Assembly: GCA_041623535.1 (NCBI GenBank)
Contig: JBFJWR010000001.1
Location: forward strand, 1-41,871
Direction of reading: 5' to 3'
Length of the DNA stretch: 41,871 nt
Origin: Pseudomonadales bacterium
GTDB lineage: Bacteria; Pseudomonadota; Gammaproteobacteria; Pseudomonadales; JBFGWM01
Position 1 is the first letter of the stretch. Each line of letters opens with the position of its first letter. The notes below the pieces were generated by a model, which was not told the origin of the DNA, made no database searches, and saw only the letters and a program-made list of their open reading frames with translations. The position numbers were made by a program, and so were the translations under genes. Below are positions 5,773-27,940 of this stretch, in pieces.

Positions 5773-5786
5773 CGGGCGATTCGTGC

Positions 5787-7190: not shown

Positions 7191-7244
7191 CGGCGCAGAA
7201 TGCGCTGTGGATAATACGGGGTCGCGAAGGGCGGCAGCCTGGGT

Positions 7245-8066: not shown

Positions 8067-8316
8067 TATTCATTCAGCTTAATTGAGATTGCCCCGATCG
8101 AAAGTCGGGTGTGTCCAGCCTCCACCTGCCGGTGGCCTGAGAATGGCAATTTGCACCAGGCCTGCTCTGCGGTTTGCCCGGACAACTGAATTTGGAGTTC
8201 AGGGTGCAACGCGGGTCGCACGAAGCCGTGAAACGCGCTTCCTGTCCCGCCCCCGCGTGGTAACTATAATTTTTGCCAGACATCCAGAATGCGACTGCAA
8301 AGGAAACCCGTCAGGC

Positions 8317-9150
8317 ATGAACCGGCAGACAGCTCCGCGCATCTACTGTATTCCGGCACTGGATGCACCGGTGGTGGCCGTGTTCCGGCGTGGTCCGAGT
8401 GACTGGTGTCACGTCGGGCGCTGGGATCTGGAACGCAAGGTTTATGAGCCGGGCGCCTGGCTGCGGGCACGTCTTTTTCCGCGTCGTTCTGATGTGTCCC
8501 CCGACGGAAAATACCTCTGCTATTTCGCCCATGACCCGACCGCGACCTGGGAGCATGGCGACGCGTATGTCGCGGTATCCCGATTGCCATGGCTGACCGC
8601 GCTATATGCGGTTGGCACCTGTGGGACGTGGACACGTGGTTATTACCTGGATGCGGACAAGCGTGGCGGGGCGATCGGCATCGATGAGCTGCCGGTGCGT
8701 TTTCCTTACGGGCTGCATAGCTACCCGAGTATCCAGTTTGCCTGCGAACGACGTCGTGGCTGGGAGGAAACCGCCGATTGCGCGCCCAGGCAGCCGAAAG
8801 ACATGTGGGACCTGAATCGCAATGCGCGCCTGCAGAAACGCCAGCCGGGCGGGAAGGCCATGCTGTACGTGGAAAGCGTGGGTGTGCCCGGCGGTGCGTT
8901 TGAATCCGGGCAGGCGGTGGATGGCATGCACGTGCGTTACAGCATCGGCAGGAAGGATGACATCTTCCCGCTGGATGACCTGCAGTGGGCGGACTGGGAC
9001 CGGCAGGGGCGGCTGCTCGTGGCAACGCGCTGCGGGAAACTGCAGGTACGTATGCCCGAAGCGGAACCGGCAGAAATACTGTTCGAGGCCGACCTGGCCC
9101 CGCTACAGCCGGATCCTGCGCCCGCGCCGGAGGAAGCGCGACGCTGGTAG
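8317..9150 (+). CDS. Hypothetical protein (277 aa), no recognised family
   Basis: The ATG at 8317 lies 47 nt downstream of a perfect TATAAT (8265-8270). Its composition looks like a real protein, unlike the Arg/Pro-rich antisense ORF 8264-9223. A SPDGKYL motif recalls PD40/TolB-type propeller blades, but nothing more can be read from it. Confidence 0.5.
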   Translation: MNRQTAPRIYCIPALDAPVVAVFRRGPSDWCHVGRWDLERKVYEPGAWLRARLFPRRSDVSPDGKYLCYFAHDPTATWEHGDAYVAVSRLPWLTALYAVGTCGTWTRGYYLDADKRGGAIGIDELPVRFPYGLHSYPSIQFACERRRGWEETADCAPRQPKDMWDLNRNARLQKRQPGGKAMLYVESVGVPGGAFESGQAVDGMHVRYSIGRKDDIFPLDDLQWADWDRQGRLLVATRCGKLQVRMPEAEPAEILFEADLAPLQPDPAPAPEEARRW

Positions 9151-9213
9151 AATCAGGACGAACCGTATGACCGGCATCGCGCCGGCGACTGACAGCGCGA
9201 GGACAGGGACCGA

Positions 9214-10761: not shown

Positions 10762-11044
10762 TCTTCGAGGCGCTGATTTCACCGCTGGCGGCGCCCTGAC
10801 GGTTCCCGCGAGCGTATCCCCGGCCAACGAAAGCGTCTTTTCCTGCCCAAATACGTGTTTGCGACGCATCTGCTCCATGATCCGAAAATGGCAATATGGC
10901 GCATCAGGATGTAAGAAATAGGTATCCATATTGGTCTGGATGGGTTATCGTTGCTCTCTTATTGGTCTCTGCGCCAATATCCAGCCATCTGCGTGCGGTC
11001 ATAATTTCGTCATCCGGCAACTCAATTTCAACAGGGGAATTCAT

Positions 11045-12810: not shown

Positions 12811-15800
12811 CTAGCCTTTCAGCCTGTCCTCGAGGTTGAATTGCGCAGTCAGGTGACGGGCCTTGTTAGTGGCGCCCCATTCGATATATGCACGACAACT
12901 CTCGGCGATACACTGGTCGGCTTCATCGTGGTGCCCTTCGGCGGCCAGCCAGCGTCCGCGGCATTCCGCGATGTAAGCCAGATCACTGGTAAATCCCTGT
13001 TCCCGTGCCGCATCGCGGCTCGCGGTGTAGAGTCCATCTACTGCGCGCGGCCGATTCTCTATCCGCGCGAGTTCCGCCTGGATCAGGTGGAGTTTGGACA
13101 GGAAGTTGAAGGGCGCGAATTGACACCAGTGTTCCATCTTCTTGTGCGATGCAAGAATCAGCTTCTTCAATTTTCCACGCTCGTTGCGGTCGGCGTCCGG
13201 ATACCTGGCCAGGCGAGCGAGGGCCGTGTGAAAGTGAAGATACGGTTCGTCGATGAGCCCCTGCACGTTCTCGATGTAGGATTCCGCCTCGAGCGCGAGC
13301 TCACAGGCACGGTTGTAGTCCCCGAACAGCCAGGCAAGCCGCATACTGGAAGCCGCGCTGATACCCAGGCCGGTGCGATCGTCAGAAGCAAGTTGCTCTT
13401 GCACCTGCTTTGCTTCGTCATACCATGGCCCCTGCATGCGGGCAGGATCACGGATGTCTGCATCAGCGAGGTTGGCGACGTACTGGGTCCAGATGCTCAT
13501 GTAGGTATGTGGCGTGATCTGATTGAGATTACGCACGGCCTCCAGGTACATCGGCATACTCCTGACCAGGCCCTGGAGATCTTTCCCGCAGTAAATTGCC
13601 GTCACGAAGTAGGAAATTGCACAATACGAGCCGTATTCGAAATCACCGTGATCAATACCGAACTGGTAGCCCTTCAGAAACGGATCGAGCGTATCGCCTA
13701 TTGGGCGCTTCCAGTGATGGATGAATTTGAAAAAATTGAAATAGGTTCTGGCGTGATACTCGTAGTCCTTGAACAGGTCCAGAACCCGCATGCCGGCCTG
13801 CCCGTAGCGGAAAGCCTGTTCATAATTACCCGTAGCCTGGGACACGATCAATCCATAAATAACCAAGGCGCTTGCCGATTCCGCTGACAAGCCATATTTC
13901 TGGGTCAGTTGTACCTGCCGGAGCACCACGATGGGAAACAGGTTGGGGCTGGCAATGTAGGACGCGGAGATCAGGCGACTGAGAATACGCATGGCTGATG
14001 ACACCCGTTGATCAGTGATCTCGGGCATGTCCGGAAAACTATCCGGTTTCGTATTCAGCAGCAGCATCCGCGTGTGGAGCAGGTGGCGCACCACGGACAA
14101 CTTTCCGGGATCCGGTTGCAGGCGAATCCCCAGGCTCCTGAGCACCGGTACCGCCTCCATGATAGCGTCCTTCATGCGGTTATTGGCCAGCAGTGCATCA
14201 ATGCGAATCTCGTGGCTGCGGACGTTGACCAATGTATTTTTCGAATGACGCAGGACTTCGCCGGTCAGCGAATGCATGGCTTGCTGGTTGCCGCTCAGGT
14301 AGGCGGCCTCGGCTGCTTCGTGGTGAAGATCAATCGTCAGTGAGCGCGCCGATTGCCAGGCATTTTTAGGCAGCATCTTTACGCCCAGGGACAGGAACTC
14401 AAAAGCCGATTGGTAGGCTGCCGATGCCATGGCTCGCTTGCCGGCGCGCAGGTTCAGTTCTGCGACCTGTACCAGTTCCTGTTCCTCGTAAATCAGGGTT
14501 CGTGCAACATTGAAATGATTTACGATTGAGAACAGATTCTTATCCGGAATATTTGCCTCACATGCTTCGACCAGCAGTCTGCCAATCTGCAGGTGGTTCA
14601 GCAGCCGCTCCTGCTGGCCAATCATTTCATAAGCAGCCTGCTGTACCCGGTCGTGCAGAAACGTATCACTGGCATTGATCATGGAGTAAGACCGTTCCTG
14701 CATCTGGGTCCCTTCGACGCAGCGCAGAAGATCATGGTTCGCATTGTCGGGGACCAACAGTCCCGCCTCGACAGCCGGCCACAATGCGGTTGCGATCTCT
14801 GTCATGGTCTGGCCGCATACCAGCGCCAGCGTGCGAATATCGAACGTGCTGCCAATGCAGGCACCGTGACGCAGGGCCTGCTGCGTGCGTCGCGGCAGCG
14901 AACTGATGCGATCGATGAGCAATTCGACGACGTTTTCAGAGACCGCTTTGCCGGCGATTTCCTGATCGTCCCAACACCATGCGTGCTGAATCGGATCGAA
15001 ACGTATATCGCCGCCGCTGTGCAAGGTCCGAATCAGGGTGCTGCAGGAAAAAGGGTTGCCGAGTGTCTTTTTCAGCACCAAGGCCGACAACGTGTTCAGT
15101 TTTTCGGTCGATTGCCGAAGCGTGTCTGCGAGCAGTTCGCGAATGTGCTCCTGGCTCAGGGGCGGCAGTTCGATGCGGGTGCTGGGTGTGCCTGACTTGT
15201 CGACTTCCTGCAGGACCCTGGTTAACGAATGTGTATCATCAACCTCGTTGTCGCGGAAAGCGCCGATGACCAGGAAATGGTTGTGGGCAGGACTGGTCAG
15301 GCAGTCCTGCATGAGTTCCAGGCTGCCGGCATCCGCCCATTGCAGGTCATCCAGGAACAGCACCAGGGGATGGTCGGCGCTGGTGAAAACCTGGATGAAA
15401 TCCCGCAGGCAATTGCGGAAGCGATTCTCGTTTTCTGCGGGATTCAGAAACCGTACGGGTTCACATGCACCCAGCAGGCGTTGCAGATCAGGGATTACCT
15501 CGACGACCACGCCGGCATTAACCCCGAGTCTTTCCCGAATCCGATCACGCCAGATGCCGCGCTCGGCCTCGGTCATGTTCAGGATCTGTCCCACCATGCC
15601 CGAGAATGCACTGACCACCGCAGAAAACGGTGTGGCCCGGTCGAATTGCTCAAACTTTCCGGTCAACAGGATGCCACCTGCCTCCAGCACAGGTTCCCGC
15701 AATTCTCCGATCAGGCTGGTTTTCCCCATGCCCGAAAAACCGCTCACCAGGGACAGCCGCCTGCCACCATCGGCCACGGCACGGAAGTCCTGCAGAATCT

Positions 15801-16737
15801 GTTCAATCTGCTGTTCACGACCATACAGTTTTTCGGGCAGGTGAAACTCTGCAGAGATATCCTGCATGCCCAGGTCAAATTTCGGGATACTGCATGTTGC
15901 TCGGAACTCAGTGAGGCAGCGGCTGATGTCGGCCAGCAGCCCAACCGCGGTCTGATAACGATCTTCCGGTTTCTTCTCCAGCAGGCGATGAACGATTGAA
16001 CAAAGCATTTCCGGCAGGTCAGGGCGCAGTTCCCTAAGTGGCGGCGCTTCCGCCGTGATGATTTCATTCAGGACAGAAACCGGATCGTCACTGGCGTAGG
16101 GCAGGTCTTTTGTCAGCATCCAGTAAAACAGGACGCCGAGTGAGTAAAAATCGGAACGATGGTCGACCTTGCGGGGTAGTCTCCCTGTCTGCTCGGGCGA
16201 CATGAAAAGCAGATCGCCGCTCAGTGCATGCCAATGATTCGCCGCTTGCTGCACCAGTTGCGTAGAGCGCCGCAGGCCGTGCAATATGACCTGGTTTTCG
16301 GCTTCATCCCAATGTACGTGTGCGGGTGAAATTGCCCGGTAAATAATCCCTTTTTTATGCAGAGACCCCAGTATTTCGGCCAGGGACCATGCAATGTTCA
16401 GCGCCTGGGCGGTGGTGATTTTCCGGTCTGTAACCCACTTGCGCAGTGGTACCGCGTTATGTGAGCGAAGGATGAGCAATGGGTTCAGGTCATCATCGAA
16501 AAAGTCGATCACCGGGGGGATGCCGGCTACGCCCTGGAGCAGCTTGCGTGTGGCATACTCCTGATGTAACTGCGCGAGTGCATGGGCGTCGTGATAGTCT
16601 GGGCTCAATTGCTCAATGACGACCGCCAGGCCATCAGACTCTCGCTCGGCCGCGAAGAGATTGCGGTCATCGATGCGCGCGATGAATTTGCCGTTCCGGT
16701 ACCCCGGCAGGTTGGGCGCTTGTGGCGCGTTTTCCAT
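12811..16737 (-). CDS. STAND-type signalling protein: degenerate Ser/Thr-kinase-like domain, AAA_16 P-loop NTPase and a long helical/TPR-like region
   Basis: The kinase-like fold has the family-typical MSPEQTGR...VDHRSDFYSLGV...RYQTAVGLLADISRC. Walker A is GFSGMGKTS and Walker B is LVLFLDDLQWAD. About 800 aa of helical repeats follow. The start is either the ATG at 16737 (MENAPQ) or the ATG at 16800. Confidence 0.8.
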   Translation of the reverse strand: MENAPQAPNLPGYRNGKFIARIDDRNLFAAERESDGLAVVIEQLSPDYHDAHALAQLHQEYATRKLLQGVAGIPPVIDFFDDDLNPLLILRSHNAVPLRKWVTDRKITTAQALNIAWSLAEILGSLHKKGIIYRAISPAHVHWDEAENQVILHGLRRSTQLVQQAANHWHALSGDLLFMSPEQTGRLPRKVDHRSDFYSLGVLFYWMLTKDLPYASDDPVSVLNEIITAEAPPLRELRPDLPEMLCSIVHRLLEKKPEDRYQTAVGLLADISRCLTEFRATCSIPKFDLGMQDISAEFHLPEKLYGREQQIEQILQDFRAVADGGRRLSLVSGFSGMGKTSLIGELREPVLEAGGILLTGKFEQFDRATPFSAVVSAFSGMVGQILNMTEAERGIWRDRIRERLGVNAGVVVEVIPDLQRLLGACEPVRFLNPAENENRFRNCLRDFIQVFTSADHPLVLFLDDLQWADAGSLELMQDCLTSPAHNHFLVIGAFRDNEVDDTHSLTRVLQEVDKSGTPSTRIELPPLSQEHIRELLADTLRQSTEKLNTLSALVLKKTLGNPFSCSTLIRTLHSGGDIRFDPIQHAWCWDDQEIAGKAVSENVVELLIDRISSLPRRTQQALRHGACIGSTFDIRTLALVCGQTMTEIATALWPAVEAGLLVPDNANHDLLRCVEGTQMQERSYSMINASDTFLHDRVQQAAYEMIGQQERLLNHLQIGRLLVEACEANIPDKNLFSIVNHFNVARTLIYEEQELVQVAELNLRAGKRAMASAAYQSAFEFLSLGVKMLPKNAWQSARSLTIDLHHEAAEAAYLSGNQQAMHSLTGEVLRHSKNTLVNVRSHEIRIDALLANNRMKDAIMEAVPVLRSLGIRLQPDPGKLSVVRHLLHTRMLLLNTKPDSFPDMPEITDQRVSSAMRILSRLISASYIASPNLFPIVVLRQVQLTQKYGLSAESASALVIYGLIVSQATGNYEQAFRYGQAGMRVLDLFKDYEYHARTYFNFFKFIHHWKRPIGDTLDPFLKGYQFGIDHGDFEYGSYCAISYFVTAIYCGKDLQGLVRSMPMYLEAVRNLNQITPHTYMSIWTQYVANLADADIRDPARMQGPWYDEAKQVQEQLASDDRTGLGISAASSMRLAWLFGDYNRACELALEAESYIENVQGLIDEPYLHFHTALARLARYPDADRNERGKLKKLILASHKKMEHWCQFAPFNFLSKLHLIQAELARIENRPRAVDGLYTASRDAAREQGFTSDLAYIAECRGRWLAAEGHHDEADQCIAESCRAYIEWGATNKARHLTAQFNLEDRLKG

Positions 16738-16987
16738 CGTGGGCCAATACTCCCGAGCCAACGCCCCGCAAACACCAGGGCGTATGAGCATCCTAGACAT
16801 TTCAGGGTCGTCCGGCCAGTCACCAAACGGCTTTCCGGGCTGTGGTGAATATTGGCGGGATGGCAGCGGTGCATTGACTCACAATGGACGACGGGTGCCT
16901 GGTTGGATGCCGCCATTATCGAATTCGCGCTCAACGAAGTGCCCACTACTGGATGCATTCCCCAATGAGCCCCACGAGGTTTCCAAC

Positions 16988-18603: not shown

Positions 18604-19698
18604 TCAGTCGCGAAAGGCATCGCGATGATAGCGGGCGGCTTCGCGCACCTCGGGAACACCGCATTCCTGAATTTTCTGAGGTTTTTTGCCGGCCAGGACT
18701 TCCAGCACCGCACGTACCCCGTGGGCCAGTGACTCGGTGTGGTAACCACCTTCCAGCACCAGTGCGAGGCGGCCGTTGCAGTGCCGGTCGGCGATCTCCT
18801 GAACGATGCCGGTCAGTGCTGCGAAGCCGCCGTACGTCACGTTGAGTGCGAGGTCGAGGCGGTGCGCATCAAAGCCGGCAGACACCAGAACGAGGTCTGG
18901 CTTGTACCACTCTGCGGCCGGCACGAGGATCTTCCGGAAGGCTTCGAGCAGTGCCGTGTCGCCGGCGCCGCCCGGCACGGGCACATTGACGGTCGTTCCC
19001 TGTCCCAGGCCGGCACCGATTTCGTGCATATCGCCGGAACCGGGATAGAAGGGGGCAGCCCGGTGAGTGTCGAAAAACAACACGTCGGGATCTGCCCAGA
19101 AGATGTCCTGGGTGCCGTTGCCATGGTGCGCATCCCAGTCCACGATCAATACCCGCTTGCAGCCGAGCGCTGCCTGCGCATGGGCTGCCGCGACCGCGAC
19201 GTTGTTGAACAGGCAGAAACCGCGCGCGCGGACCGGTTCGGCATGGTGACCGGGAGGCCGCACCAGTGCGAAGGCACTGCTGCAGCGACCCGCGACCACT
19301 GCCTCTACCGCGGCGATCGCGGTGCCGGCGGCAACTTCTGCCGCCTTTACGCTGCCGGGTGATACCGCGGTGGTGTCTTCATCGAGCCAGGCGTTGCGTC
19401 CACGCAGTTCGAAAATGTCTTCAAGGTACTGTGAGGTATGTACGCGGCCGAGTTGTTTGCGGGTGGCCACCTTGCCCTTTTCGAAGCGCACACCGGGTAC
19501 CGGCCGGGCCTTCAGCAGCTTCAGGATTTCCGTCAGGCGCCCGGGGTGCTCGGGATAGTTCCACTTGACCTCCAGTCCGGCAAGGACCTCGCGCAGGCGA
19601 CGGTCCAGCCTGCCGGGAAGGAATTCGTCCTGTACGTCGGGTCGGTGTTCCAGTACCCGCTCGTCGTAAAAGGCTATGACATCGCGGTCGCCGATCAT
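18604..19698 (-). CDS. Histone deacetylase-family Zn amidohydrolase (acetylpolyamine amidohydrolase / AcuC-like)
   Basis: It carries [47 protein letters not shown] and LEGGY. I prefer the ATG at 19698 (a GAGGA lies 10 nt upstream), which is 41 nt after the stop of the upstream gene. The track start at 19761 would overlap that gene. Confidence 0.85.
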
Positions 19699-19739
19699 GG
19701 CAAGATCATCCTCGTTATCGGGGGGTGCATACGGCGCGC

Positions 19740-21731
19740 TCAGGCACGGTCCACGGCCCAACTGGCCAATGCCATCTGCTCGATTTCCTCGCAGAGTGCA
19801 TCCGGTACCTGCGCCGGGTCCTGCTGTTCCAGTGGATCGTAGTGGAACAGGTACAACCTGGAGACAAACTCTGCGAAAGGCAGGGATGCTTCTCCCTGCG
19901 ATTCGCCGGTACCGGAAGTGGCGACCAGCACGCCGTTGCCCCAGTCCTGGCCGCTGTCGTTGTTGGGGTTATAAAAGTACACACGCATCTCGTTATTCTG
20001 GTCGAGCGCTACGCGTTGCAGCGTGATCGCGTGCCAGCCGATGAAGCGGCCGAGGGAGTCGGTGGCGGCAATGCCGGCCGGTTGCGGGTACATGACCGGT
20101 TTGTTGCCGTTGTAGAACGGGTGATAGCTGGCGTGAAAGCCACGGATGAAATCGTGGTAGTCACACAGACGCCCGTCCTCGATGCTGACCGCGATCGCGA
20201 AGCCATGACCCACCCAGCGGCCGTGGAACTCGGGGTTGATCCAGAAGTGCGGATCCTCGTCACGACCCTCGACCAGCTGTCCCATGTGTATGTACACACG
20301 ATCGAGGTGGGGGACCAGGATCAGCGAGACCGGGTCGAGATCCAGGTGCAGCCGTTCCATCGAGCCATCGACCATGGATGCCGAGGATAGTTGCTGCCCC
20401 TCGAAATACATGATGACTTCGCAATCGCGTGCTGCCCAGGTCAGTAGCTGCAGCAGATAATCCGGTTGCAGGTAGGCCCACATGGACAGTGCGCGGGCGG
20501 CCTGGCAGGTCGGGTTGTCACCCTGGCCGACACCCAGTGGCTGGCCGAGGATACCCAGTACGCCGGCGAGCAGATGGACTTCCGCAGGTTGCGCAGTGCC
20601 GTATGCGCAGGCGATGGTGTCGCGCACGCTGTCGTCCAGTTGCAGGTCGATCTGTCGCCACAGGCTGGGTCCGAGTGCCGGACTGTAAAGTATGCCGCGT
20701 TCGAGCATGCAGGCGAGGCCGTAGATGGCCTGGCAGGTTTCCGGGTAGACGGCGCGCTCAATCAGCGTGTGAATCAGTTCATGAAAGGTGAGCAGCACGT
20801 CGCGGCCGGTGCTGGAAAGACCCAGCGTCTGCGAAATGGCCTCCACGCCGCGATCCAACTGGAAGCGCAGCAGCACCGCGTGATAGGCAGACACCAGTCC
20901 GGTGTCATGCATCGCGCGTGCGCAACCCGCGGCTTCCTCCTGGATGCCCGCATCATCGAGTTGTTCCAGCCGTTCGCGGTAGATGTCCAGGCCCGGATCA
21001 TCCTGGCTGGCAACTGTCGGGTTGAACAGGGCACTGGTCAGGCGTTCGGCACCCCGGCCTGCCGAGCCCAGGTTCACGTCCGGATCGGCCATGCACACCG
21101 CCACGTTGGTCACCATGGTCGTGATGTGGTCGACCTTGATCGGCCGCTGGCGCAGCAGTCGCCAGATTTCCTCGATCAGTTCGTCCAGCATGCGGTCGTA
21201 GCCAACCTGTTCGACGATGAACTGAAACAGTCGTTGTACCTCGGCCTCCAATGGCTTGGTGCGGCTGGCCTCGTCACTGGTGCCGAATATGCGGCTGAGG
21301 TTGAGTGCCAGTACCGCACGCAGGAAGTGTTCTGCCTGCTCAGCCGATATGCCGGGGTGCTGGAACTGCGCACGCGCGATCGAGAGCATGCGCAACTGGT
21401 TCAGGCACTCAAGCGTGACATCGTTCAGTTCGCCCAGGTTGAAGCAGCCGGCCACGAGTTGCGGCTGGAGTTTTTCCGGATGGTCATAATCCGAACCCTG
21501 GAAGATGCCGGCCGTATCCAGCGTGGGCGCGGCGGCGTACAGCGGGGTCAGGCCGTTAGGATGCTTCAACAGTCGCTGTACGTAGCTGAGTACCTTGGCG
21601 AAATGCGCAGGTTTGGCAAAGTCTGCGGCGGCGGCCAGTTCGGAACGGGCGCGTTCCAGGCCATCACAGAGGCGCTGTAAAGCAGGGTCGATATCATCCG
21701 GCCCTGTGGGCGGGGTTGCATCAGGAAGCAT
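19740..21731 (-). CDS. Orphan 663-aa protein: helical N-terminal two-thirds, C-terminal putative papain/calpain-like cysteine hydrolase fold
   Basis: The ATG at 21731 follows GAGGTG with a 9-nt spacer (the track start at 21743 is a GTG). The motifs, in track numbering, are Q407-x5-C413 ([17 protein letters not shown]), H571 (GWHAITL) and N592 ([15 protein letters not shown]). An HELIH string occurs at 321-325. I recognise no family. Confidence 0.6.
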
Positions 21732-22077
21732 GCTTGAATTCACCTCGACACGGTTCGGGTTAATGTCGTACTTCAGTTACCGACAGGCATCGTGCGCGTA
21801 CGATAAACAGAAGCGACCCATCACGGATTGCAATCGTTATCATTGCTGATTCAAGCGCTTTTGGCTAATTCCTGCAGCGGTTTCCGCGAAACAGGTCTGC
21901 GATGCATTCGTGACGAGCGCAAATATTTGTTACGCTCATGCAACTGATTTGATTTCCTTCCCTGGTGCGTAACTACTGCAAAACATTGCCGGTAGGGGTG
22001 ATTGTCGACTCGGTGCACCCCGTGGGAATCCGGAATGGAAGCTGGCAGTCCACTTCAATTCAACACAGGAGCGGAAC

Positions 22078-23304
22078 ATGACCGATAAGAATCCGGACAA
22101 GGGCTACGTTGCCCTGCTGGGCTGGTCTCTCAACGCCATCGAGGCGCTTAATCAATTTGACCGTCGCTTCGTGGTGGTGGCCCCGGATTGGGCCGAGGAG
22201 TACGCGCGCGAGCACAACATTCCGTTCATTCCGTGGAATTTTGAGCGGCTGAACGACCGTTCCCACGAAATTGCACAACAACTGAAAGCAGAGGGAGTGG
22301 ACGTCGCCATTCCGTTGTTCGAAGAAACCGTCGAATGGTCCGGCGCGATCAATTCGGTGCTGCTCGGTAACCCGCGATTGCTCGGCCAGTCGATGTTGTT
22401 TCGCGACAAGGCCCTGATGAAGCGCCGTGCCCAGTTGGGTGGCATTCGCGTGGGTATCTTCGAGGAAGCGCATGACAAGGACGACGTGGTCCGCTTTCTG
22501 CGCCGGGTCAATCAGACGCTGCTCAAACTCGATGGCGATCCGAATGATCCGATTCACCTCAAGGCATTCGACAAGGCCGGTTGCCTGGGTCACCGCGTGA
22601 TCCGTACGGTGGAGGATGTCGAATCGATTACCCCCGACGAATTTCCGGCATTGCTCGAAAGCCATCTGGACGGCTGGGAGTTCGGTGTCGAAGCCTGGAT
22701 CCAGGACGGCAAGATCCGCTTCCTGAATATCTCCGAATATGTCCGCCTGGGCTATTCCGTATTCGTGCCGGCTTCACCGGAACTGGAAAAATGGCGGCCA
22801 CGACTGGAGGAGGAGATCAACAAGCTGATCGAGACCTTCGAAATTGATTTTGGCTTCATACACCCGGAATACTTCGTTACCAGTGACGGCAAGATGTACT
22901 TCGGCGAAGTGGCCTACCGGCCGCCCGGCTTCAAGGCTTTCGAACTGATTGAACGTGCCTACGGATTCAACTGCTACCAGGCGCAGGTGGTGTGCTTTGA
23001 TCCCAAGTCCACCCCGGAAGAGGTCGAGTCGTTCTTCCCGCGCCCGGTGGTGGATGCCAAGGGCCATGCCGGTTGTTTCGGCGTGTATCCGCGTCTGCGG
23101 GTGGTCAGCAAGCTGGAGATTCCGAAGGAAACCGAAGAGCACGAGTACTACGAGTATCACGACCTTGCGCTGCCACTGGAAGAGACCGTGACCAAGCGCT
23201 CGGCGTTCGGTACCCATTGGGGGCTCGTCTACTTTTTCGGGAATGATCCCGATCGCATGCGTGATTTGCTCGCGGCGCAGGAAGAACTGGATTTCTATAT
23301 CTGA
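22078..23304 (+). CDS. ATP-grasp fold carboxylate-amine ligase (similar in size and layout to L-amino-acid ligases)
   Basis: An AGGAG lies 6 nt before the ATG. A pre-ATP-grasp Rossmann-like N-terminus is followed by LFRDKALMKRRAQLGGIRV, IHLKAFDKAGCLGHRVI, LLESHLDGWEFGVEAWIQDGKIRFL and GFIHPEYFVTSDGKMYFGEVAYRPPG. This is the usual ATP-grasp strand/loop pattern. Confidence 0.75.
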   Translation: MTDKNPDKGYVALLGWSLNAIEALNQFDRRFVVVAPDWAEEYAREHNIPFIPWNFERLNDRSHEIAQQLKAEGVDVAIPLFEETVEWSGAINSVLLGNPRLLGQSMLFRDKALMKRRAQLGGIRVGIFEEAHDKDDVVRFLRRVNQTLLKLDGDPNDPIHLKAFDKAGCLGHRVIRTVEDVESITPDEFPALLESHLDGWEFGVEAWIQDGKIRFLNISEYVRLGYSVFVPASPELEKWRPRLEEEINKLIETFEIDFGFIHPEYFVTSDGKMYFGEVAYRPPGFKAFELIERAYGFNCYQAQVVCFDPKSTPEEVESFFPRPVVDAKGHAGCFGVYPRLRVVSKLEIPKETEEHEYYEYHDLALPLEETVTKRSAFGTHWGLVYFFGNDPDRMRDLLAAQEELDFYI

Positions 23305-23449
23305 TCGTCCTGTCCTGCTACGCGTGTCATGGCGCCTCCTGCAGGCCGTGTGAGGCGCTTCGACTTTACCCTGTGGGCATTACGCAGGGCGACATTAGGT
23401 CGGGGTCACGCATCTGTTGCACCCGGCCCCCTGATACGGTGGATACAAT

Positions 23450-23839
23450 ATGAAGATTGTTCGATTGCAGAACCTGATCGGTACCGAGCGGGAAGTGAAG
23501 GGCCCTGGCTGGATCAGCCGCCGCCTGCTGCTCAAGAAAGACGGCATGGGGTTTTCCTTTCACGATACGGTGATACCTGCCGGCGCGGAATTGCCACTCT
23601 GGTACAAGAACCACCTGGAAGCCGTGTACTGCGTCAGCGGCAACGGTTCCATCAAGGATCTTTCGACCGGCGAGATCCACGAGATCAGTGACGGAACGCT
23701 GTACGCGCTGAACGATCATGACCAGCACATTCTCTACGGTGGCACCGAGGACATGCGCCTGGTCTGCGCGTTCAATCCGCCGGTGACCGGCAACGAGACG
23801 CATGACGCCGACGGTTCCTACGAACTGGTTGATGAATGA
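23450..23839 (+). CDS. ectC: EctC-type cupin (L-ectoine synthase family), solitary
   Basis: The 129-aa protein is collinear with characterised ectoine synthases as I recall them (Halomonas elongata EctC): MKIVRL..., [53 protein letters not shown]57, Y85 and H93 occupy the positions of the reported iron ligands. Confidence 0.85.
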
Positions 23840-23953
23840 CGCGGCAATCCGGTCGGGGCATAATCGTGCCGGGCGGGGCACTGCCGGGGTGTATGTCATC
23901 GCCCGGGCCGCAGTCCCGGTCCGGTTAACAGGGAGCATCCTACAACGGAATTT

Positions 23954-24682
23954 ATTGAATCCCTGCCGCTGACGGCAGTACGGATCACCACTCTGGATCA
24001 GCAGGTCGCGCTGACCAACGCCACGGGCTTTTTCTTCCGGCGCGACGAGCGCCTGTTCCTGGTCACGAGCCGGCACGTGATGGTGGATGCACCGAGCAAA
24101 CACTACCCGGACCGGCTCGAGATCGAGCTGCATGTCGATTCGCACAACCTGGCCGATTCCACCGGTTTCTCTATCCCCCTGTACCGGGACGGCAAAAGCA
24201 TCTGGCGCCAGGCCACTGATGCGGCCGGTGAGATCGACGTGGCGGCGATCGAGATCGAACAGCAGGCGCTGCCCGACACCATCGTCTATCGCGCCTTTAC
24301 CACCGACCACCTGCTGGCCCCGGACGCGCAGGTCGCCATCGGCACCTCGTTGCTGGTGGTGGGCTTTCCGCTGGGGTTTCACGATACGCTGCACCACATG
24401 CCGGTGGCGCGCCACGCCGTGATCTCCTCCTCTTTCGGCCTGCGCTTCCAGGGCGAGGGCTACTTCATCACCGACGCCCGCACGCACCGCGGGATCAGTG
24501 GCGCACCGGTGGTTATGCGCGCCACCGGTAAAGCCGGTGCAGCGCAGGACCTGCCCTGGACCCTGCTCGGCATCCACTCCGCGCGCCTCGATGTCGGTAC
24601 GCGCGATCTGAAACTCGACGAGGCCCTCGGCCTCAACTGCTCGTGGTATGCGGATATATTGATGACGCTGACTGAGGGTTGA
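23954..24682 (+). CDS. Trypsin-fold (S1/S1C-like) serine peptidase; 5' end unresolved
   Basis: The Ser motif is THRGISGAPVV, the Asp is in GEIDVAAIEI, and the His is in LFLVTSRHV (codon 24074-24076). The frame is open from 23864 but the first ATG/GTG/TTG is the GTG at 24077, after the His. I provisionally place the start at ATT 23954; an AGGGAG sits at 23930-23935. Confidence 0.6.
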   Translation: MESLPLTAVRITTLDQQVALTNATGFFFRRDERLFLVTSRHVMVDAPSKHYPDRLEIELHVDSHNLADSTGFSIPLYRDGKSIWRQATDAAGEIDVAAIEIEQQALPDTIVYRAFTTDHLLAPDAQVAIGTSLLVVGFPLGFHDTLHHMPVARHAVISSSFGLRFQGEGYFITDARTHRGISGAPVVMRATGKAGAAQDLPWTLLGIHSARLDVGTRDLKLDEALGLNCSWYADILMTLTEG

Positions 24683-25107
24683 TGCTGCGGGAGGGCGGGT
24701 GTTCGTGACAGCGGGTAGTCATCGATTCGAATGCCATGTTGGGATAACGACAAATTCAACATCGATCCAGTTGGCGGTTCAATTCGGGCTACTGCAATAA
24801 TGCTGTAACTAAAATCTGTTGGATTTGTTGAGAGAGCCGGACCCCATTTGTTGCACAACTCTAGCCGGCTCGATAAGTGGACTCTGCACGGTTTACGACA
24901 GCCACCAGTTCATCGCTCCGACCTCACGCCAATCCGAACAGCCCGCGCGACCCGAGCCTGCAGGTCGCGAGGGTGCATTGGCACGCGGTGTCGGCAGGCT
25001 CTGCGAGTCTGCATCACTCCCGAAATCAAGCAGCAAACTAGACTTGCGTACGTCAATCCTGCAGTTTGACCTATAGCTTTAACGAGTAGCTTGCCGCTAC
25101 ATGCTAA

Positions 25108-25713
25108 CTACGATCCAGACAAGCCGTAAAAATCGATAATGTCATTACCAAACTGAAGATCATCGGTTGTTCTGTCCGCCAAGAGTCTCAGGCTGGCATC
25201 ATCGGCCACCGCGCCGCCTTTTGCGATGATGCCTTTCAACGTTATCAGCGCATCACCCGGCGTTGTCATAAGTTGCTCGCGAATTTCGGTGCCAAAATTC
25301 AATACCAGGCTTTTCAATTCAAGCGAAGTGTTGGGTTGGATCGGCATCATGCTTTCTTCTTTGGCTTTCATGATGACGTGGTATTGACCCGGAGCATATT
25401 CCCAGGCCGCCCCGGAAATTACGTCGGTAGTGCCAATGTCCCAGAAGATGCTGAGTAATGTGATCCCGTCAAAAGATTGCTCTAACGGGAAGGTCTGAGT
25501 CTTGAAACCTTCTCTCTTGAACATGACGGTATCGAACTTGTTTTTCTTCAAGCTTACGGTCAACGGCGTCACGCCAATCGGCTGGCCATCCACGATCACC
25601 TGAACATCTTCCGGGTCACTGGTAAAAGTAAGAGTTTGATCAGTTCCACTGATAATCGTGGCGCATCCCGCCATGGTCAAAATCATGGATAGCAGTACAG
25701 CTAGCTTCTTCAT
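25108..25713 (-). CDS. PEGA-domain lipoprotein
   Basis: The N-terminus is MKKLAVLLSMILTMAGC (lipobox). It is followed by TFTSDPEDVQVIVDGQPIGVTPLTVSLKKNKFDTVMFKREGFKTQTF, a PEGA-type beta-sandwich motif. The gene is visibly more AT-rich than its neighbours. Confidence 0.7.
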   Translation of the reverse strand: MKKLAVLLSMILTMAGCATIISGTDQTLTFTSDPEDVQVIVDGQPIGVTPLTVSLKKNKFDTVMFKREGFKTQTFPLEQSFDGITLLSIFWDIGTTDVISGAAWEYAPGQYHVIMKAKEESMMPIQPNTSLELKSLVLNFGTEIREQLMTTPGDALITLKGIIAKGGAVADDASLRLLADRTTDDLQFGNDIIDFYGLSGS

Positions 25714-25952
25714 GGTGGCGCGTCCTGAAATTATAAAATTGCGAAGGGGCGCGAATGTTAGCTATTTGTCCATTGAATGTCACGGGCAATGTTTGCGTTA
25801 GTAGGTTGCGAACAAAAAATAGTTTGTTTTTTTGCAGGGGAAATGGCCGAGTGCAGCATTAGCATCAGTGTGCGAGGCAGACACAGAGGGGGGGCATATT
25901 CAGGTTGCGCCTGAATAGAGCGTTTGTATATCAGATTGATGGATTAGGAGAT

Positions 25953-26028
25953 TGGCTCCCCGAGTTGGACTCGAACCAACGACAGGCGGATTAACAGTCC
26001 GCTGCTCTACCAACTGAGCTATCGGGGA
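25953..26028 (-). tRNA. tRNA-Asn (anticodon GTT)
   Basis: The reverse complement reads TCCCCGATAGCTCAGTTGGTAGAGCAGCGGACTGTTAATCCGCCTGTCGTTGGTTCGAGTCCAACTCGGGGAGCCA. It has a 7-bp acceptor stem, anticodon loop CT-GTT-AA, a GGTTCGAGTCC T-arm and an encoded CCA. It closely resembles E. coli tRNA-Asn. Confidence 0.9.
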
Positions 26029-26049: not shown

Positions 26050-27009
26050 TTAGGGCGGTGGGGAGTCGGGGTCAAATCCTGTTGCACTTTCGCTGCTGTA
26101 AATTTCTCCCTGCAGGGTGCGGCCGTCCATTCGGCGTACGTCCTGCATGGCGGAAATCTTGCCCAGGCGGTAGGCGCGCCGATAGAGTTCGCGCGCGACC
26201 TCGCGCTCTCCGCGCCCCTCCATGAGGCGCGCAGCCTGGAATGCGCCCTCGGCCACCTCCCGGTCGGAGGCCTTTAAAAACTGCTCCAGCGCCTGCCGGG
26301 GATCTTTGCGCACGCCATCACCCACGAGGTAAATAAAGCCCAGCGCCAGGTGGGCGGGGCCGTAACCCTTTTCCGCAGACTGCTGGTAGAGCGTGATTGC
26401 GCGCTCATTATTCGTCGCGTAGACGCGACCCCGGTGGTGCAGGGTGCCAAGGTGGTACATGGCCGGGCCATTGCCCTGTGCCGCGGCATTCTCATAGAGA
26501 CGCGCTGCGCGCATGTAGTTTTGTTGCAGGCCGATGCCATTCTCGTACGACCAGCCCAGGAACAACTGCCCTTCGGCATTGCCGCTTTCGGCGGCCTTGC
26601 GCGCCCAGTGTACGGACAGCGTCGGGTTCGGCTCGACGCCCAGCCCATGGTGATAGCGATGGGCCATTTCGGCCTGGGCGTCGGTATTGCCCAACTTGGC
26701 GGCCGAGTAGTAATGCCTGGCTGCCATGTTCTCGTTTTTTTCCACGCCGGTGCCCGAGGAATATGCCTGGGCAAGACGCAGCAGCGATTTTTCGTGGTGG
26801 GGACTGCCCGCATTAGCGGCGTTCTGTTCCAGCCAGGCGATTGCATCCGCTGCCCGTGGGCCACCGAGTGCGGCATCCGCCTCAATCAGTGAGCCCACCG
26901 AGCCGCGGTATTCAGATGCCGGGGGCTTCTCTGGCGCGCTCCCGCAACCGGGAAGCAGCAGGACGGGCAGAAGTGCCAGGCAGCCCAGCGATGCGAGCCG
27001 CTTATTCAT
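26050..27009 (-). CDS. Sel1-repeat (SLR/TPR-like) lipoprotein
   Basis: The signal peptide has lipobox LLPGC. Repeated Sel1 units follow (AQAEMAHRYHHGLGVEPNPTLSVHWARKAAESGNAEGQLFLGWSYENGIGLQQN...). Its start overlaps the stop of the upstream paralogue by 8 nt. Confidence 0.8.
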   Translation of the reverse strand: MNKRLASLGCLALLPVLLLPGCGSAPEKPPASEYRGSVGSLIEADAALGGPRAADAIAWLEQNAANAGSPHHEKSLLRLAQAYSSGTGVEKNENMAARHYYSAAKLGNTDAQAEMAHRYHHGLGVEPNPTLSVHWARKAAESGNAEGQLFLGWSYENGIGLQQNYMRAARLYENAAAQGNGPAMYHLGTLHHRGRVYATNNERAITLYQQSAEKGYGPAHLALGFIYLVGDGVRKDPRQALEQFLKASDREVAEGAFQAARLMEGRGEREVARELYRRAYRLGKISAMQDVRRMDGRTLQGEIYSSESATGFDPDSPPP

Positions 27010-27940
27010 GGCCGGCCTTTTCGCGGATGCGGGCCAGCGCCTCGCCGGCCTGGGCGATTCCTGCGGCTTCTGCCCGCAGGTAAAGCTGATGGGCGGCTTC
27101 TAGGTCACCGTCGCTCTCCTTCACCTGTCCGAGGAAGAATGCGCCCAGGGGGTGCCCGCGGTCGGCTGCCTTGCTCAGCCAGTCACGCGCCTGTTGCTTG
27201 TCCTGCGGTACCTTTTCGCCCTGGAAGTAGAGCAGGCCCAGCTGGATCTGGGCGGCGGCAAAACCCTTTGCTGCGGATTCGCGGTAGAGATCCAGCGCCC
27301 GGTTGATGTCCTCCGGCACACCATCGCCATTCTGGTACAGCACGGCGAGGTTGTTCTGGGCGATGGGGTCACCGCCCGCGGCCGCTGCCTCGTAGTAGCG
27401 GACGGCCGCGGCCAGGTCTTTCTCAACACCAATGCCGAAATGATGCGCCCAGCCCATGTACTGCTGGCCCTGCGGATTGCCCTGTTCGGCGGCGCGCCCG
27501 GCCCAGTACAAAATCTGATCGGTGTTGCGCTCCACGCCGACCGCGAAATCGTAACGGCGTGCCATTTCCGCCTGCGACTCGGCATCACCGCCATAAGCCG
27601 CAGCACGGATGTAGTCGGAACCGATTTCCAGGTTTTTCTCCACACCCAGACCGCGTGAATACATCACGCCCAGCGCCTTGCTCGCGGCAACCTGGTCGGG
27701 ATGGTCCGGCTGCTCCGCGATGTACTGGAACAGGTCCAGGGCGGCGACATAGTCCCGCTCGTTGAATGCCTGCACGGCGGCGCGCAATTCCTCGCCAACG
27801 GACTGGGGCTGAGCCGGGCTTGCCGGCGACTGGGACGGCTGCGGAGCGCCGGATTCCTGCGTGGGTGCCGCGCAACCCGCCAGCAGCGCGAAGTACAGCG
27901 CTGTGGCAGGCAGGCGGAGCCGGTGTGATATTGCCGCCAT
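27002..27940 (-). CDS. Sel1-repeat (SLR/TPR-like) lipoprotein, paralogue of the downstream gene
   Basis: The lipobox is LLAGC. Sel1 units read SQAEMARRYDFAVGVERNTDQILYWAGRAAEQGNPQGQQYMGWAHHFGIGVEKD... The ATG shares one base with the aminotransferase TGA (TGATG). Confidence 0.8.
   Translation of the reverse strand: MAAISHRLRLPATALYFALLAGCAAPTQESGAPQPSQSPASPAQPQSVGEELRAAVQAFNERDYVAALDLFQYIAEQPDHPDQVAASKALGVMYSRGLGVEKNLEIGSDYIRAAAYGGDAESQAEMARRYDFAVGVERNTDQILYWAGRAAEQGNPQGQQYMGWAHHFGIGVEKDLAAAVRYYEAAAAGGDPIAQNNLAVLYQNGDGVPEDINRALDLYRESAAKGFAAAQIQLGLLYFQGEKVPQDKQQARDWLSKAADRGHPLGAFFLGQVKESDGDLEAAHQLYLRAEAAGIAQAGEALARIREKAGHE

Follow-up and report, generated by a model that had tools for sequence, protein, structure and literature searches.

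An ATP-grasp carboxylate-amine ligase (C) and an orphan protein of an unnamed family (B) are encoded by a conserved two-gene cassette that does not depend on any further neighbour. The locus described here is a composite, in which this core is joined by genes for an ectoine synthase (D) and an HDAC-family deacetylase (A), accessory neighbours in a minority of lineages, and by a local gene for a trypsin-like peptidase (E) (Table 1). With a probability of roughly 0.45, it represents an undescribed ATP-dependent module for making and breaking an amide, tied to osmolyte (ectoine/diaminobutyrate, DABA) metabolism and standing beside a relocated ectC.

The five open reading frames were confirmed by the ORF list and by gene calls on identical MAG contigs, and their assignment in a first-pass annotation (HDAC-type, orphan, ATP-grasp, EctC, and trypsin-like) agrees with the Pfam and NCBIfam searches. 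Genes B and A are separated by 41 nt, C and D by 145 nt, and D and E by 237 nt. As the annotation had stated for the locus, ectA and ectB are absent; neither was present anywhere in the window, i.e., the whole 41.9-kb stretch of DNA that was analysed. Its overall idea stands in part: the ATP-grasp, orphan, and EctC genes are indeed linked, whereas a single five-gene system for an N-acyl diamine or cyclic amidine is not borne out.

Table 1. Positions and assignments of the features of the locus
Feature	Positions	Strand	Remarks
A: HDAC-family deacetylase	18604-19698	-	364 aa; ORF list and gene calls on identical MAG contigs
B: orphan protein, unnamed family	19740-21731	-	663 aa; second core gene of the cassette
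C: ATP-grasp carboxylate-amine ligase	22078-23304	+	408 aa; first core gene of the cassette
D: ectoine synthase EctC	23450-23839	+	129 aa; accessory gene found repeatedly beside the cassette
E: small cytoplasmic trypsin-like serine peptidase	24077-24682	+	201 aa; lineage-specific neighbour
B/C intergenic region	21732-22077		346 nt, between divergent B and C
Perfect 10-bp palindrome GATTGCAATC	21826-21835		chance-level; not taken as functional

The conserved cassette and its two proteins

Of 80 related genome loci, which span two phyla (Actinomycetota and the Alpha-, Beta-, Gamma-, and Zetaproteobacteria), 76 have B next to C, and in 68 of the 80 B lies downstream of C on the same strand. The pair is usually a C→B operon, rearranged here into a divergent pair. 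No other neighbour cluster exceeds 7/80 of these C-centred loci, no Pfam family is enriched among 76 upstream neighbours, and neither a small ORF nor a candidate target gene is conserved beside the cassette. The proposal of a conserved, divergent five-gene system is not supported: only C and B are conserved together. Both genes are under purifying selection, and their third-position GC tracks that of each host genome, which marks the cassette as a long-term resident. It occurs in hundreds of bacteria, among which halophilic, halotolerant, or marine taxa dominate, as judged from host and sample names. No published description of the pair was found within the accessible literature, in keeping with the earlier remark that the gene combination is not recognisable as a described pathway.

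C matches Pfam ATP-grasp_4 at 8e-4 only, under the curated cut-off, while 24 of 26 homologues match this model. In the PDB profile search, its family profile matches L-amino-acid ligases (3vot, 1.4e-4, and RizA, 4wd3), and Foldseek on a low-confidence model retrieves ATP-grasp enzymes exclusively, with RizA, biotin carboxylases, and PurK as the best matches. RimK, LysX, GshB, and TTL are absent among its profile and fold matches. By these similarities, C is an ATP-grasp ligase akin to L-amino-acid ligases and PurK-type enzymes. At least 583 C-related stretches occur in a collection with one genome per species, all with about 77-92% identity; Halomonas and Streptomyces share 87% identity, and dN/dS within genera is 0.015-0.12. 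Such extreme conservation is unusual in a small-molecule ligase and counts against the preferred explanation.

B has no match in Pfam, NCBIfam, or PADLOC. An N-terminal all-helical region (approximately residues 15-400) is followed by a C-terminal alpha+beta domain with Gln403-x5-Cys409, His567, and Asn588. Gln403, Cys409, His567, Asn588, Pro589, and Gln595 are retained in 41-42 of 42 sequences, each 30-48% identical to B. In the AF2 model (pLDDT 76) the cysteine stands at the start of a helix and the histidine on a beta-strand. The best Foldseek matches are papain-like cysteine peptidases at a non-significant E of 0.18-0.6, other weak ones include ARM/HEAT-type scaffolds and separase, and no profile or fold search with B reached significance (fold E of 0.18 or more). 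The C-terminal domain thus appears to carry a papain-like Gln/Cys/His/Asn set, the putative clan assignment resting on the motif and the non-significant fold matches; of the papain-type signature noted previously, the conservation pattern holds up and a significant profile or fold match does not. The family is closed, with only 306 matches among 1.84 billion representatives and one architecture throughout. The helical-repeat domain of about 390 residues is unusual in a small-molecule amidase and likewise counts against the preferred explanation.

According to this explanation, C would activate a carboxylate with ATP as an acyl-phosphate and join it to an amine, the product being possibly an amide-linked, amino-acid-derived small molecule of the osmostress (ectoine/DABA) pool. 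B would cut or transfer this amide through a thioester on Cys409, with His567 and Asn588 as probable partners and Gln403 as the likely oxyanion hole, so that the couple could set the size of the pool. Where B is missing, in one sub-clade of C, a Peptidase_Mx gene adjoins C and ectC in two arrangements, and this Zn peptidase may take the place of B. D would convert N-gamma-acetyl-DABA to ectoine by cyclisation, as usual, and A might N-deacetylate the product of C or one of its precursors.

The ectoine synthase gene beside the cassette

D is a typical member of its family, matching Pfam Ectoine_synth at 4e-56, the NCBIfam ectoine synthase model at 188 bits (cut-off 128), and the PDB ectoine synthases 5bxx (4e-40) and 5onm (1e-38). 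The metal ligands (Glu57, Tyr85, and His93) are kept. Its relatives at 75-81% identity are found in ectABC (5 loci), in ectA-ectC pairs (13 loci), as solitary genes, and beside C and/or B (14/80). Because of this identity to clustered ectC and the kept ligands, D is most plausibly the ordinary ectoine synthase of the organism, split from ectAB, and the reading of D as a special cyclase is not supported.

Spelled out as a single pathway, the idea of the first-pass annotation is that the five genes together yield a new cyclic amidine or N-acyl diamine. An N-acyl-diamino acid made by the ATP-grasp enzyme would be cyclised by EctC, giving a new tetrahydropyrimidine that the HDAC, Cys-hydrolase, and Ser-peptidase would dismantle. 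The proximity of C and ectC speaks for this pathway. The two genes directly adjoin each other in the same orientation in the window, in L001 (36-nt gap), and in L110 and L124 (125-nt gap), and as a divergent pair in L014, L150, L153, and L155; in some loci the pair persists even where B is missing. Nevertheless, the pathway is quite unlikely, since the five-gene set occurs only in this organism and partly in its closest relative (L001), ectC is not near most C-B cassettes, and E resembles a candidate defence protein that is not conserved with the others. Nor is there a sign of changed specificity in D, given its resemblance to ectABC-type enzymes, its full set of metal ligands, and its identity of about 57% to structurally characterised ectoine synthases.

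The linkage of ectC to the cassette is real and non-random outside the source genome, and that of the HDAC gene is weaker; the co-occurrence expected earlier fails for the trypsin-like gene and for the five genes as a set. Among 80 ectC-centred metagenome loci, 14 have C and/or B no more than 3.4 kb from ectC. They represent 8 lineages and six or more arrangements, C-only and B-only included; several of them are one organism sampled repeatedly, and many are close relatives of each other. Among the 80 C-centred loci, ectC lies within 10 kb in four (L001, L014, L016, and L052). As about 95% of the C-centred loci lack ectC and about 96% lack an HDAC gene within 10 kb, the ectoine link could reflect co-regulation or a shared history within one gammaproteobacterial group.

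A juxtaposition by chance or history, in which C-B is independent and of unrelated function and ectC, HDAC, and peptidase genes are adjacent by local synteny in one group of marine/hypersaline Gammaproteobacteria, appears unlikely. These genes are indeed missing beside most cassettes, and many linked metagenome loci are closely related among themselves. The Marinobacter HDAC orthologue lies away from the cassette, and in Arhodomonas sp. AD133 the longest contigs listed for the HDAC and B (353,211 vs 178,688) suggest that the two are on separate contigs. The linkage has nonetheless outlasted rearrangement (C→D, C¦D, B¦D, C-B¦D, and C→B…D, besides D→C→GNAT→HDAC, Mx→C→D, B→A, A¦C, and A→¦←B) and extends to distant hosts, such as a member of the Zetaproteobacteria (L008), Lentisalinibacter (L014), and an actinobacterium (L016). 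Control genes of the window (Zn-ADH, globin-like, and PEGA), in contrast, never occur in the related loci, save for weak paralogues of about 30% identity.

Deacetylase, peptidase, and the intergenic region

A matches Pfam Hist_deacetyl at 4e-93 and contains the EGGY motif. Its PDB matches are HDAH (about 6e-61) and the HDAC6 catalytic domains (about 5e-51 each), acetylpolyamine amidohydrolase 3men following at only 1.5e-32; within the HDAC/acetylpolyamine-amidohydrolase family named initially, A thus stands nearer to the lysine deacetylases of the HDAC6/HDAH type than to the acetylpolyamine enzymes. On sequence grounds, A is a Zn-dependent deacetylase of the class IIb/HDAH-like type, and its gene accompanies the cassette only occasionally, as an accessory. 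An HDAC gene lies within 10 kb of C in 3 of the 80 C-centred loci; overall, it was found near C/B in L008, L014, L072, L149, L164, L165, and L166, and not in Marinobacter. The gene order in L149 is Sir2-ectC-C-GNAT-HDAC, where the Sir2 protein is a CobB-type protein deacylase (377 bits) and the GNAT is RimI-like.

These neighbours could also belong to a protein-modification cycle, in which C adds one or more amino acids to a protein terminus or side chain, B binds the substrate through its helical repeats and trims the added residues with its Cys-protease domain, and the HDAC6-like, Sir2, and GNAT enzymes act on the same target. Precedents exist: RimK ligates onto ribosomal protein S6 and TTL onto tubulin, and RimB or vasohibin trim. 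Such a cycle would suit the helical N-terminus of B with its weak matches to scaffolds and separase, the kinship of A to HDAC6 and bacterial HDAH rather than polyamine deacetylases, the L149 neighbours of C, and the conservation of C, which is at a level typical of proteins touching conserved macromolecules. It is somewhat unlikely all the same: the nearest profile and fold relatives of C are small-molecule ligases (L-amino-acid ligases, PurK, and biotin carboxylase) and do not include RimK, LysX, GshB, or TTL, the cassette has no conserved companion, whether target gene or small ORF, and the ectC linkage would be left unexplained.

E exceeds the Trypsin_2 cut-off marginally (29.2 vs 27.6 bits) and, in PADLOC, resembles the candidate defence protein PDC-S45 (9.7e-14). 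L001 and two identical MAG contigs (L081 and L083) are the only other loci with a trypsin-like gene beside the cassette (1/80 C-centred loci), and a promoter-like site (23836-23864) and the gap noted above precede E. It is probably a local, lineage-specific addition outside the system. Together with a STAND-type kinase 2 kb to the left and the logic of graspetides (an ATP-grasp enzyme plus a peptidase), E might hint at a conflict/defence system or RiPP cluster acting on phage proteins or a peptide precursor. Such an origin is highly improbable, as PADLOC matches none of A, B, C, and D and the flanks of the cassette contain no short ORF that is conserved. The cassette is, moreover, a stable chromosomal pair: purifying selection on it is strong, its codon composition is adapted to the host, and the housekeeping genes around it differ between lineages.

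The palindrome GATTGCAATC highlighted between B and C exists, yet it carries no weight: perfect palindromes of this length occur 55 times in the window, and shuffling the B/C intergenic region yields at least one in 29% of cases. A second one, CAAATATTTG, lies at 21920, and neither recurs between B and C at other loci where the two diverge. Promoter prediction gave no sigma-70-like site in the region, and no motif is shared across 89 upstream regions; an AGGAG ribosome-binding site before C is the sole element common to other divergent B/C loci.

Comparison with known systems

The L-amino-acid ligases (RizA 4wd3, BL00235 3vot, and BacD 3vmm) are the best profile and fold matches of C; they are of similar length (about 400 aa), and the region of the E-V-A-Y-R-P-P-G Mg/ATP motif aligns. 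The resemblance is confined to the ATP-binding core (residues ~181-304, E of 1e-4), and C differs from these enzymes in lying outside a natural-product cluster and in being much more conserved than any known member.

In glutathionylspermidine synthetase/amidase, a synthetase is fused to an amidase that is a CHAP domain. Its logic resembles that of C and B, as an ATP-dependent synthetase forms an amide conjugate on which a Cys-His amidase, produced along with it, also acts. Unlike in this fusion, C and B are separate genes, and no glutathionylspermidine structure is among the PDB profile matches of either. NAGGN, an N-acetylated dipeptide osmolyte of osmostressed bacteria, is made by AsnO-Ngg with an ATP-grasp-type ligase, and a peptidase gene is associated with it in pseudomonads. 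The system is similar in having acetyl-transfer and peptidase functions nearby, just as L149 joins C with a GNAT and deacetylases; the present locus, however, has no asnO-type amidotransferase and no GNAT-ATP-grasp fusion. Gene neighbourhoods combining an ATP-grasp enzyme and a peptidase were reportedly predicted by Iyer, Abhiman, Burroughs and Aravind in 2009 (Mol Biosyst 5:1636; cited in PMC2938197). Like RimK-RimB and TTL-vasohibin, they pair a ligase with a peptidase to make and break a bond, as C and B would, and as might Peptidase_Mx beside C in one sub-clade. In contrast to all of these, B has no Pfam model, C is not RimK-like in the PDB profile search, and there is no evident protein target.

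An ectC split from ectAB has already been described for marine and hypersaline bacteria (PMC5924519), for example the 'disentangled' ectC of Spiribacter salinus, which is separate from ectAB (Czech et al. 2018, Genes 9:177, PMC5924519). That review recorded no conserved neighbourhood for solitary ectC and called its role unresolved. D is likewise encoded apart from ectA and ectB, and its closest relatives, too, include solitary genes and members of ectA-ectC pairs from marine/saline metagenomes. Unlike the solitary genes of the review, a subset of them adjoins the ATP-grasp and/or B gene, and D groups by sequence with cluster-type EctC rather than with the divergent basal orphan groups.

The five-gene locus and its surroundings

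The five open reading frames named by the first-pass annotation are all present in the window (Table), and independent gene calls on three MAG contigs of identical sequence return identical gene models of 364, 663, 408, 129 and 200 residues. Also confirmed are the 346-nt divergent intergenic region, which separates the gene for the orphan protein B from that for the ligase C, and the 41-nt gap between B and the deacetylase gene A. Confidence in the anatomy of the locus is high.

Table. Position of the locus genes and of other features in the window
Feature	Position	Strand	Match or remark
MscS-type mechanosensitive channel fused to cyclic-nucleotide-binding domain	9214-10761	+	osmoregulation-related; 8 kb from locus
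1329-aa protein: Ser/Thr kinase domain, AAA_16 STAND NTPase, TPR repeats	12811-16800	-	kinase part: many PADLOC PD-T4-6 model matches, best 3.8e-38
Globin-like ORF, 136 aa	18124-18534	+	Pfam Globin 0.0019, under cut-off
A, histone-deacetylase-family enzyme	18604-19698	-	Pfam 4e-93 (PF00850, 312 bits)
B, family without Pfam or NCBIfam match	19740-21731	-	
Palindrome GATTGCAATC	21826-21835		
CAAAACA…TGCCGGTA block	21985-22010		
C, ATP-grasp	22078-23304	+	ATP-grasp_4 8e-4, under curated cut-off
D, ectoine synthase	23450-23839	+	Pfam 4e-56 (PF06339, 189 bits, cut-off 27); NCBIfam 188 bits vs cut-off 128 (PRK13290, 187.7 bits)
E, trypsin-like	24077-24682	+	Trypsin_2 29.2 bits vs cut-off 27.6, marginal
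GC dip	25001-26028		0.48 vs ~0.60 elsewhere in window
PEGA-domain lipoprotein	25108-25713	-	within GC dip
tRNA-Asn	25953-26028	-	end of GC dip
Two Sel1-repeat lipoproteins	26050-27940		after GC dip

The perfect 10-bp palindrome reported within the intergenic region does exist but is uninformative. The window contains 55 such palindromes, at least one arises in 29% of shuffles of the intergenic region, and this one is not kept in the other divergent B/C intergenic regions; given its chance frequency and absence of conservation, it was rejected as an operator. A comparison of 89 loci found the ribosome-binding site as the sole common feature upstream of C. The CAAAACA…TGCCGGTA block is shared, among 168 loci, by Alloalcanivorax mobilis alone (L023, positions 9854-9873). 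Rfam detects the tRNA-Asn as the only RNA element, and predicted terminators and promoters show no excess over expectation. The flanks of the locus carry signalling and housekeeping genes, including uvrB, aspartate aminotransferase and the tRNA-Asn. The globin-like ORF, which has the HDAC gene on one side and a Zn-dependent alcohol dehydrogenase family gene on the other, is conserved solely on the identical MAG contigs.

A widespread cassette of two genes

A scan with C over one genome per species yielded at least 583 related stretches, of which the best 80 (77-92% identity to C) were analysed. Their hosts belong to the Actinomycetota (Streptomyces, Saccharopolyspora, Pseudonocardia, Rhodococcus, Mycobacterium, and Hoyosella/Lolliginicoccus), Alphaproteobacteria (Roseovarius), Betaproteobacteria (a Burkholderiaceae MAG), Zetaproteobacteria (Mariprofundaceae), and Gammaproteobacteria (Halomonas, Modicisalibacter, Marinobacter, Alcanivorax, Methylophaga, Marinimicrobium, Aquisalimonas, and Woeseiaceae). 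According to tblastn with the window proteins, B adjoins C in 76 of these best 80 loci, and two of the remaining four are truncated by contig ends. C is followed by B on the same strand in 68 loci, with a gap of 19-50 nt where genes were called, and the two genes converge in five; the divergent layout of the window recurs in three only (L023, L024, and L072), all of them Alcanivorax-type. Neighbours other than B are rare among the 80: an HDAC gene lies near C in three loci (L008, L014, and L072), ectC in four (L001, L014, L016, and L052), and a trypsin-like gene in a single one (L001, the closest relative). When all ORFs of the 80 loci are clustered all against all, no further neighbour is shared by more than seven loci, and a Pfam census of the 76 immediate upstream neighbours shows lineage-specific synteny only (e.g., Mqo in Marinobacter).

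As only B recurs beside C, the pair constitutes a conserved unit that needs no other neighbour; both genes are inherited together under strong purifying selection, without other fixed partners. The conserved system of five genes proposed at first is thus reduced to a cassette of two, though a much more widespread one. The observation behind that proposal was largely right and its interpretation partly so. A search of the plasmid collection gives one match, on an unannotated Halomonas megaplasmid. Culturable hosts of the cassette include Halomonas, Marinobacter nauticus, Alcanivorax, Roseovarius, and Streptomyces.

The assignment of C is supported by several comparisons. ATP-grasp_4 is matched by 24 of 26 C homologues (best 6e-6), and the family profile retrieves the L-amino-acid ligases BL00235 (PDB ID: 3vot, 1.4e-4) and RizA (PDB ID: 4wd3), followed by PurK and carbamoyl-phosphate synthetase. 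The AlphaFold2 model has low confidence (pLDDT 54), owing to an overly uniform alignment; Foldseek nevertheless returns 39 matches at E <= 1e-3 for this poor model, all those listed being ATP-grasp enzymes, with RizA at the top (1e-6; TM 0.33 on the same pLDDT 54 model), and these matches were taken as support for ATP-grasp membership alone. By profile and fold, C belongs to the ATP-grasp superfamily. Sequence and alignment show as invariant K162 in HLKAFDKAG, E194-x-x-L-D-G-x-E, E264, and E277-V-A-Y-R281-P-P-G, the last of which aligns with EVGARIGG of 3vot. These residues probably provide ATP and Mg binding as the central-domain lysine, the hinge glutamate and the E-x-[N/A]-x-R Mg motif. With characterised Lal enzymes, only the core residues 181-304 align (24 bits), and database entries name C only 'carboxylate--amine ligase' or 'ATP-grasp domain-containing protein'.

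The two members of the cassette evolve at different rates. C retains 75-88% identity between phyla and classes, and 87% between Halomonas and Streptomyces although synonymous sites are saturated; its GC content at third codon positions varies from 0.40 (Methylophaga) to 0.93 (Streptomyces), fully matched to the host, and its within-genus dN/dS lies at 0.015-0.12. Such conservation equals or exceeds that of typical housekeeping proteins and might be due to an obligatory large complex. In our experience, C is among the most conserved non-housekeeping enzymes. The evolution of B is 2-4 times faster, with 51-68% identity between phyla and a dN/dS of 0.06-0.28.

The family of B, with about 660 residues and at least hundreds of species, is called 'hypothetical protein' in every database entry, and no model of Pfam, NCBIfam or PADLOC covers it. 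A profile search against 1.84 billion representative proteins gives 306 matches, and the listed ones are homologues over the full length or fragments with the same architecture, none of them providing a remote link to another domain; B constitutes a closed family. One homologue, P0002, is 78% identical. In the AlphaFold2 model (pLDDT 76), an all-helical N-terminal region (residues ~15-400) precedes an alpha+beta C-terminal domain. Across 42 sequences with 30-48% identity to the window protein, Q403, G404, C409, H567, N588, P589, and Q595 show no or almost no variation, whereas this does not hold for the N-terminal conserved patches.

The catalytic set of papain comprises Q19, C25, H159, and N175. 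The Q403-x5-C409 spacing of B equals that of Q19-C25, in agreement with the clan CA motif, and in the model a helix (410-421) starts at the cysteine, the histidine is located on a strand (563-576), and the asparagine follows. The best Foldseek matches are papain-like peptidases, i.e., a Parabacteroides dipeptidyl aminopeptidase and staphopains (5wdk and 3pw3 among the top matches), but at E of 0.18-0.6 and a probability of at most 0.38. No match was obtained in Pfam at E <= 10 for 31 members, in two PDB profile searches, or by hhalign against papain. The Cys-His-Asn signature noted in the first reading is therefore invariant and papain-like in arrangement but lacks a significant profile or fold match, and the reading is reasonable, not proven.

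Solitary ectC genes and other neighbours

D aligns without gaps over residues 6-98 to EctC of Sphingopyxis alaskensis (PDB ID: 5bxx, 4e-40), and its E57, Y85, and H93 are identical to those of that structure; Glu57, Tyr85, and His93 (S. alaskensis numbering) are the metal ligands of EctC (PMC5924519). The 41.9-kb window encodes no other ect gene: tblastn and Pfam annotation of all large ORFs bear out the reported absence of ectA and ectB, and D is not part of a canonical, contiguous ectoine cluster. Judging by sequence, we take D to be an ordinary ectoine synthase gene located apart from ectAB, as described for marine and hypersaline bacteria (PMC5924519). The single pathway to cyclic amidines suggested for all five genes is weakened both because D is canonical in sequence and because the five genes are not conserved as a set, and appears unlikely.

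A metagenome scan with D gave 80 loci (75-81% identity), five of which contain ectA-ectB-ectC clusters and 13 ectA-ectC pairs, with EctA confirmed by TIGR02406. In these pairs, ectC comes straight after ectA without an intervening ectB (L092, L097, L099, L102-L104, L106, L107, L112, L119, L128, L131, and L139). Approximately 29 of the 80 loci carry a solitary ectC preceded by genes for DUF2868 and a DUF3482 GTPase and followed by an MFS transporter; an Orn/DAP/Arg decarboxylase gene lies on the opposite strand after the transporter in such L108-type loci, which may represent a second conserved neighbourhood of solitary ectC.

C and/or B lie within 3.4 kb of ectC in 14 of the 80 loci, a lower bound since just 45 of the 80 contigs reach 3 kb on both sides of ectC. 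By ectC nucleotide identity, the 14 represent eight lineages, and they show at least six arrangements: C followed by D as in the window (L110, L124), divergent C and D (L150/L155, L153), B divergent from D in the absence of C (L158-L163), the C-B pair divergent from D (L146, L152), C and B followed by D (L100), and D followed by C, a GNAT gene and an HDAC gene (L149). Adding L001, L014, L016 (an actinobacterium), and L052 brings the independent lineages with ectC near C or B to about a dozen. Control genes of the window, weak paralogue matches aside, do not co-occur in the C- or D-centred loci. The proximity of D to C and B is non-random. A purely accidental juxtaposition of the cassette with ectC, HDAC and peptidase genes is improbable, as adjacency is kept through the varied arrangements.

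Among L146, L152, L153, and L158-L163, the ectC genes share 83-92% DNA identity, yet C-B, C alone or B alone may stand divergent from ectC. These differing layouts indicate that the cassette is splittable, with either half staying beside ectC. Replacement of EctA by C-B was considered and rejected: 13 close ectC relatives keep ectA adjacent, and the cassette is common in genera with full ectABC clusters.

A retains the tandem histidines, the Zn ligands D-H-D and the catalytic tyrosine (EGGY) in alignment with the HDAC6 catalytic domains. It matches HDAH/PA3774-type enzymes (~6e-61) and each HDAC6 domain (~5e-51) better than the acetylpolyamine amidohydrolase APAH (PDB ID: 3men, 1.5e-32), and by similarity is not assigned to the acetylpolyamine amidohydrolase subfamily. 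Orthologues with 52-79% identity are located near cassette genes in L008, L014 (B followed by A, as in the window), L072, and L149. Three of the four closest homologues are also linked to the cassette, at 1.8 kb (L164), at ~9 kb (L165) or directly as C-B-A (L166), while the Marinobacter orthologue is not. The TARA contig of L149 carries, at 5547-10907, a CobB-type Sir2 deacylase, ectC, C, a RimI-like GNAT and the A-type HDAC; B is absent from this 11-kb contig.

In a sub-clade of C (74-76% identity) without adjoining B, the Zn peptidase Peptidase_Mx is encoded beside C and ectC, where it may stand in for B as a non-homologous hydrolase. Its gene (PF15887, 4e-79) precedes C and D in L124 (3470-4432), and in L150/L155 (10513-11562) it follows D, which is divergent from C.

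E is assigned to the trypsin-like peptidases by its marginal profile match and by a candidate His-Asp-Ser triad read from its sequence (H19 or H23, D54, and S141 in GISGAPV); in the PDB it matches HtrA at E ~0.25 only. It occurs only in the closest relatives (L001 and the identical MAG contigs), is preceded by a 237-nt gap and a promoter-like site, and matches PDC-S45, a candidate defence family of PADLOC (9.7e-14). It was not counted as a member of the system; possibly it is a conflict gene that acts on its own and has no relation to the genes around it.

Possible roles and relation to known systems

The cassette genes repeatedly have ectC next to them; an HDAC-type deacetylase gene is a less frequent neighbour. 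The preferred explanation, to which we give a probability of roughly 0.45, is that the cassette makes and breaks an amide within the osmostress metabolite pool. C would form an acyl-phosphate and couple it to an amine; B, or Peptidase_Mx in its place, might hydrolyse or transfer the resulting amide; the compound would belong to the pool around DABA, N-acetyl-DABA and ectoine; A might deacetylate this compound or one of its precursors, and D would produce ectoine. More tentatively, C-B may serve the synthesis and turnover of an amide-type stress metabolite in salt-tolerant Actinomycetota and Proteobacteria, either a new compatible solute or a conjugate derived from DABA or ectoine. If so, B would establish a new papain-like family of amidases or transferases. 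Confidence is much lower for this chemistry than for the anatomy.

The main rival, a protein-modification cycle, is suggested by the large helical-repeat region of B, the resemblance of A to protein lysine deacetylases, the Sir2 and GNAT genes of L149 and the extreme conservation of C; it is nonetheless unlikely, since C looks like a small-molecule ligase and not like RimK or TTL, and the cassette has no conserved target gene. A role in defence or in RiPP biosynthesis is also unlikely. PADLOC matches none of A, B, C, and D, only E; a RiPP or graspetide precursor was sought and discarded, for no conserved short ORF flanks the cassette and the largest cluster of flanking short ORFs is an out-of-frame artefact over the start of C.

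The role of solitary or relocated ectC and the control of the ectoine pool are open questions in ectoine biology (PMC5924519). A ligase/hydrolase pair that recurs beside such genes offers a concrete, testable lead. A function for the cassette would annotate thousands of database entries, and with it a new osmolyte or regulatory modification used in salt adaptation might come to light.

The open-access literature, incomplete in coverage, yielded no description of the C-B pair or of an association between ectC and an ATP-grasp gene. The general kind is already known: ATP-grasp amidoligases encoded beside peptidases were reportedly described by Iyer et al. in 2009 (cited in PMC2938197). In glutathionylspermidine synthetase/amidase, a synthetase and its amidase are made together. 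This precedent, invoked by the first-pass annotation, holds for the make/break logic, which is all that C-B shares with it; neither C nor B matches Gsp or CHAP models in the Pfam and PDB searches. NAGGN, an N-acetylated dipeptide osmolyte made by an ATP-grasp enzyme, provides a precedent for the osmolyte proposed here.
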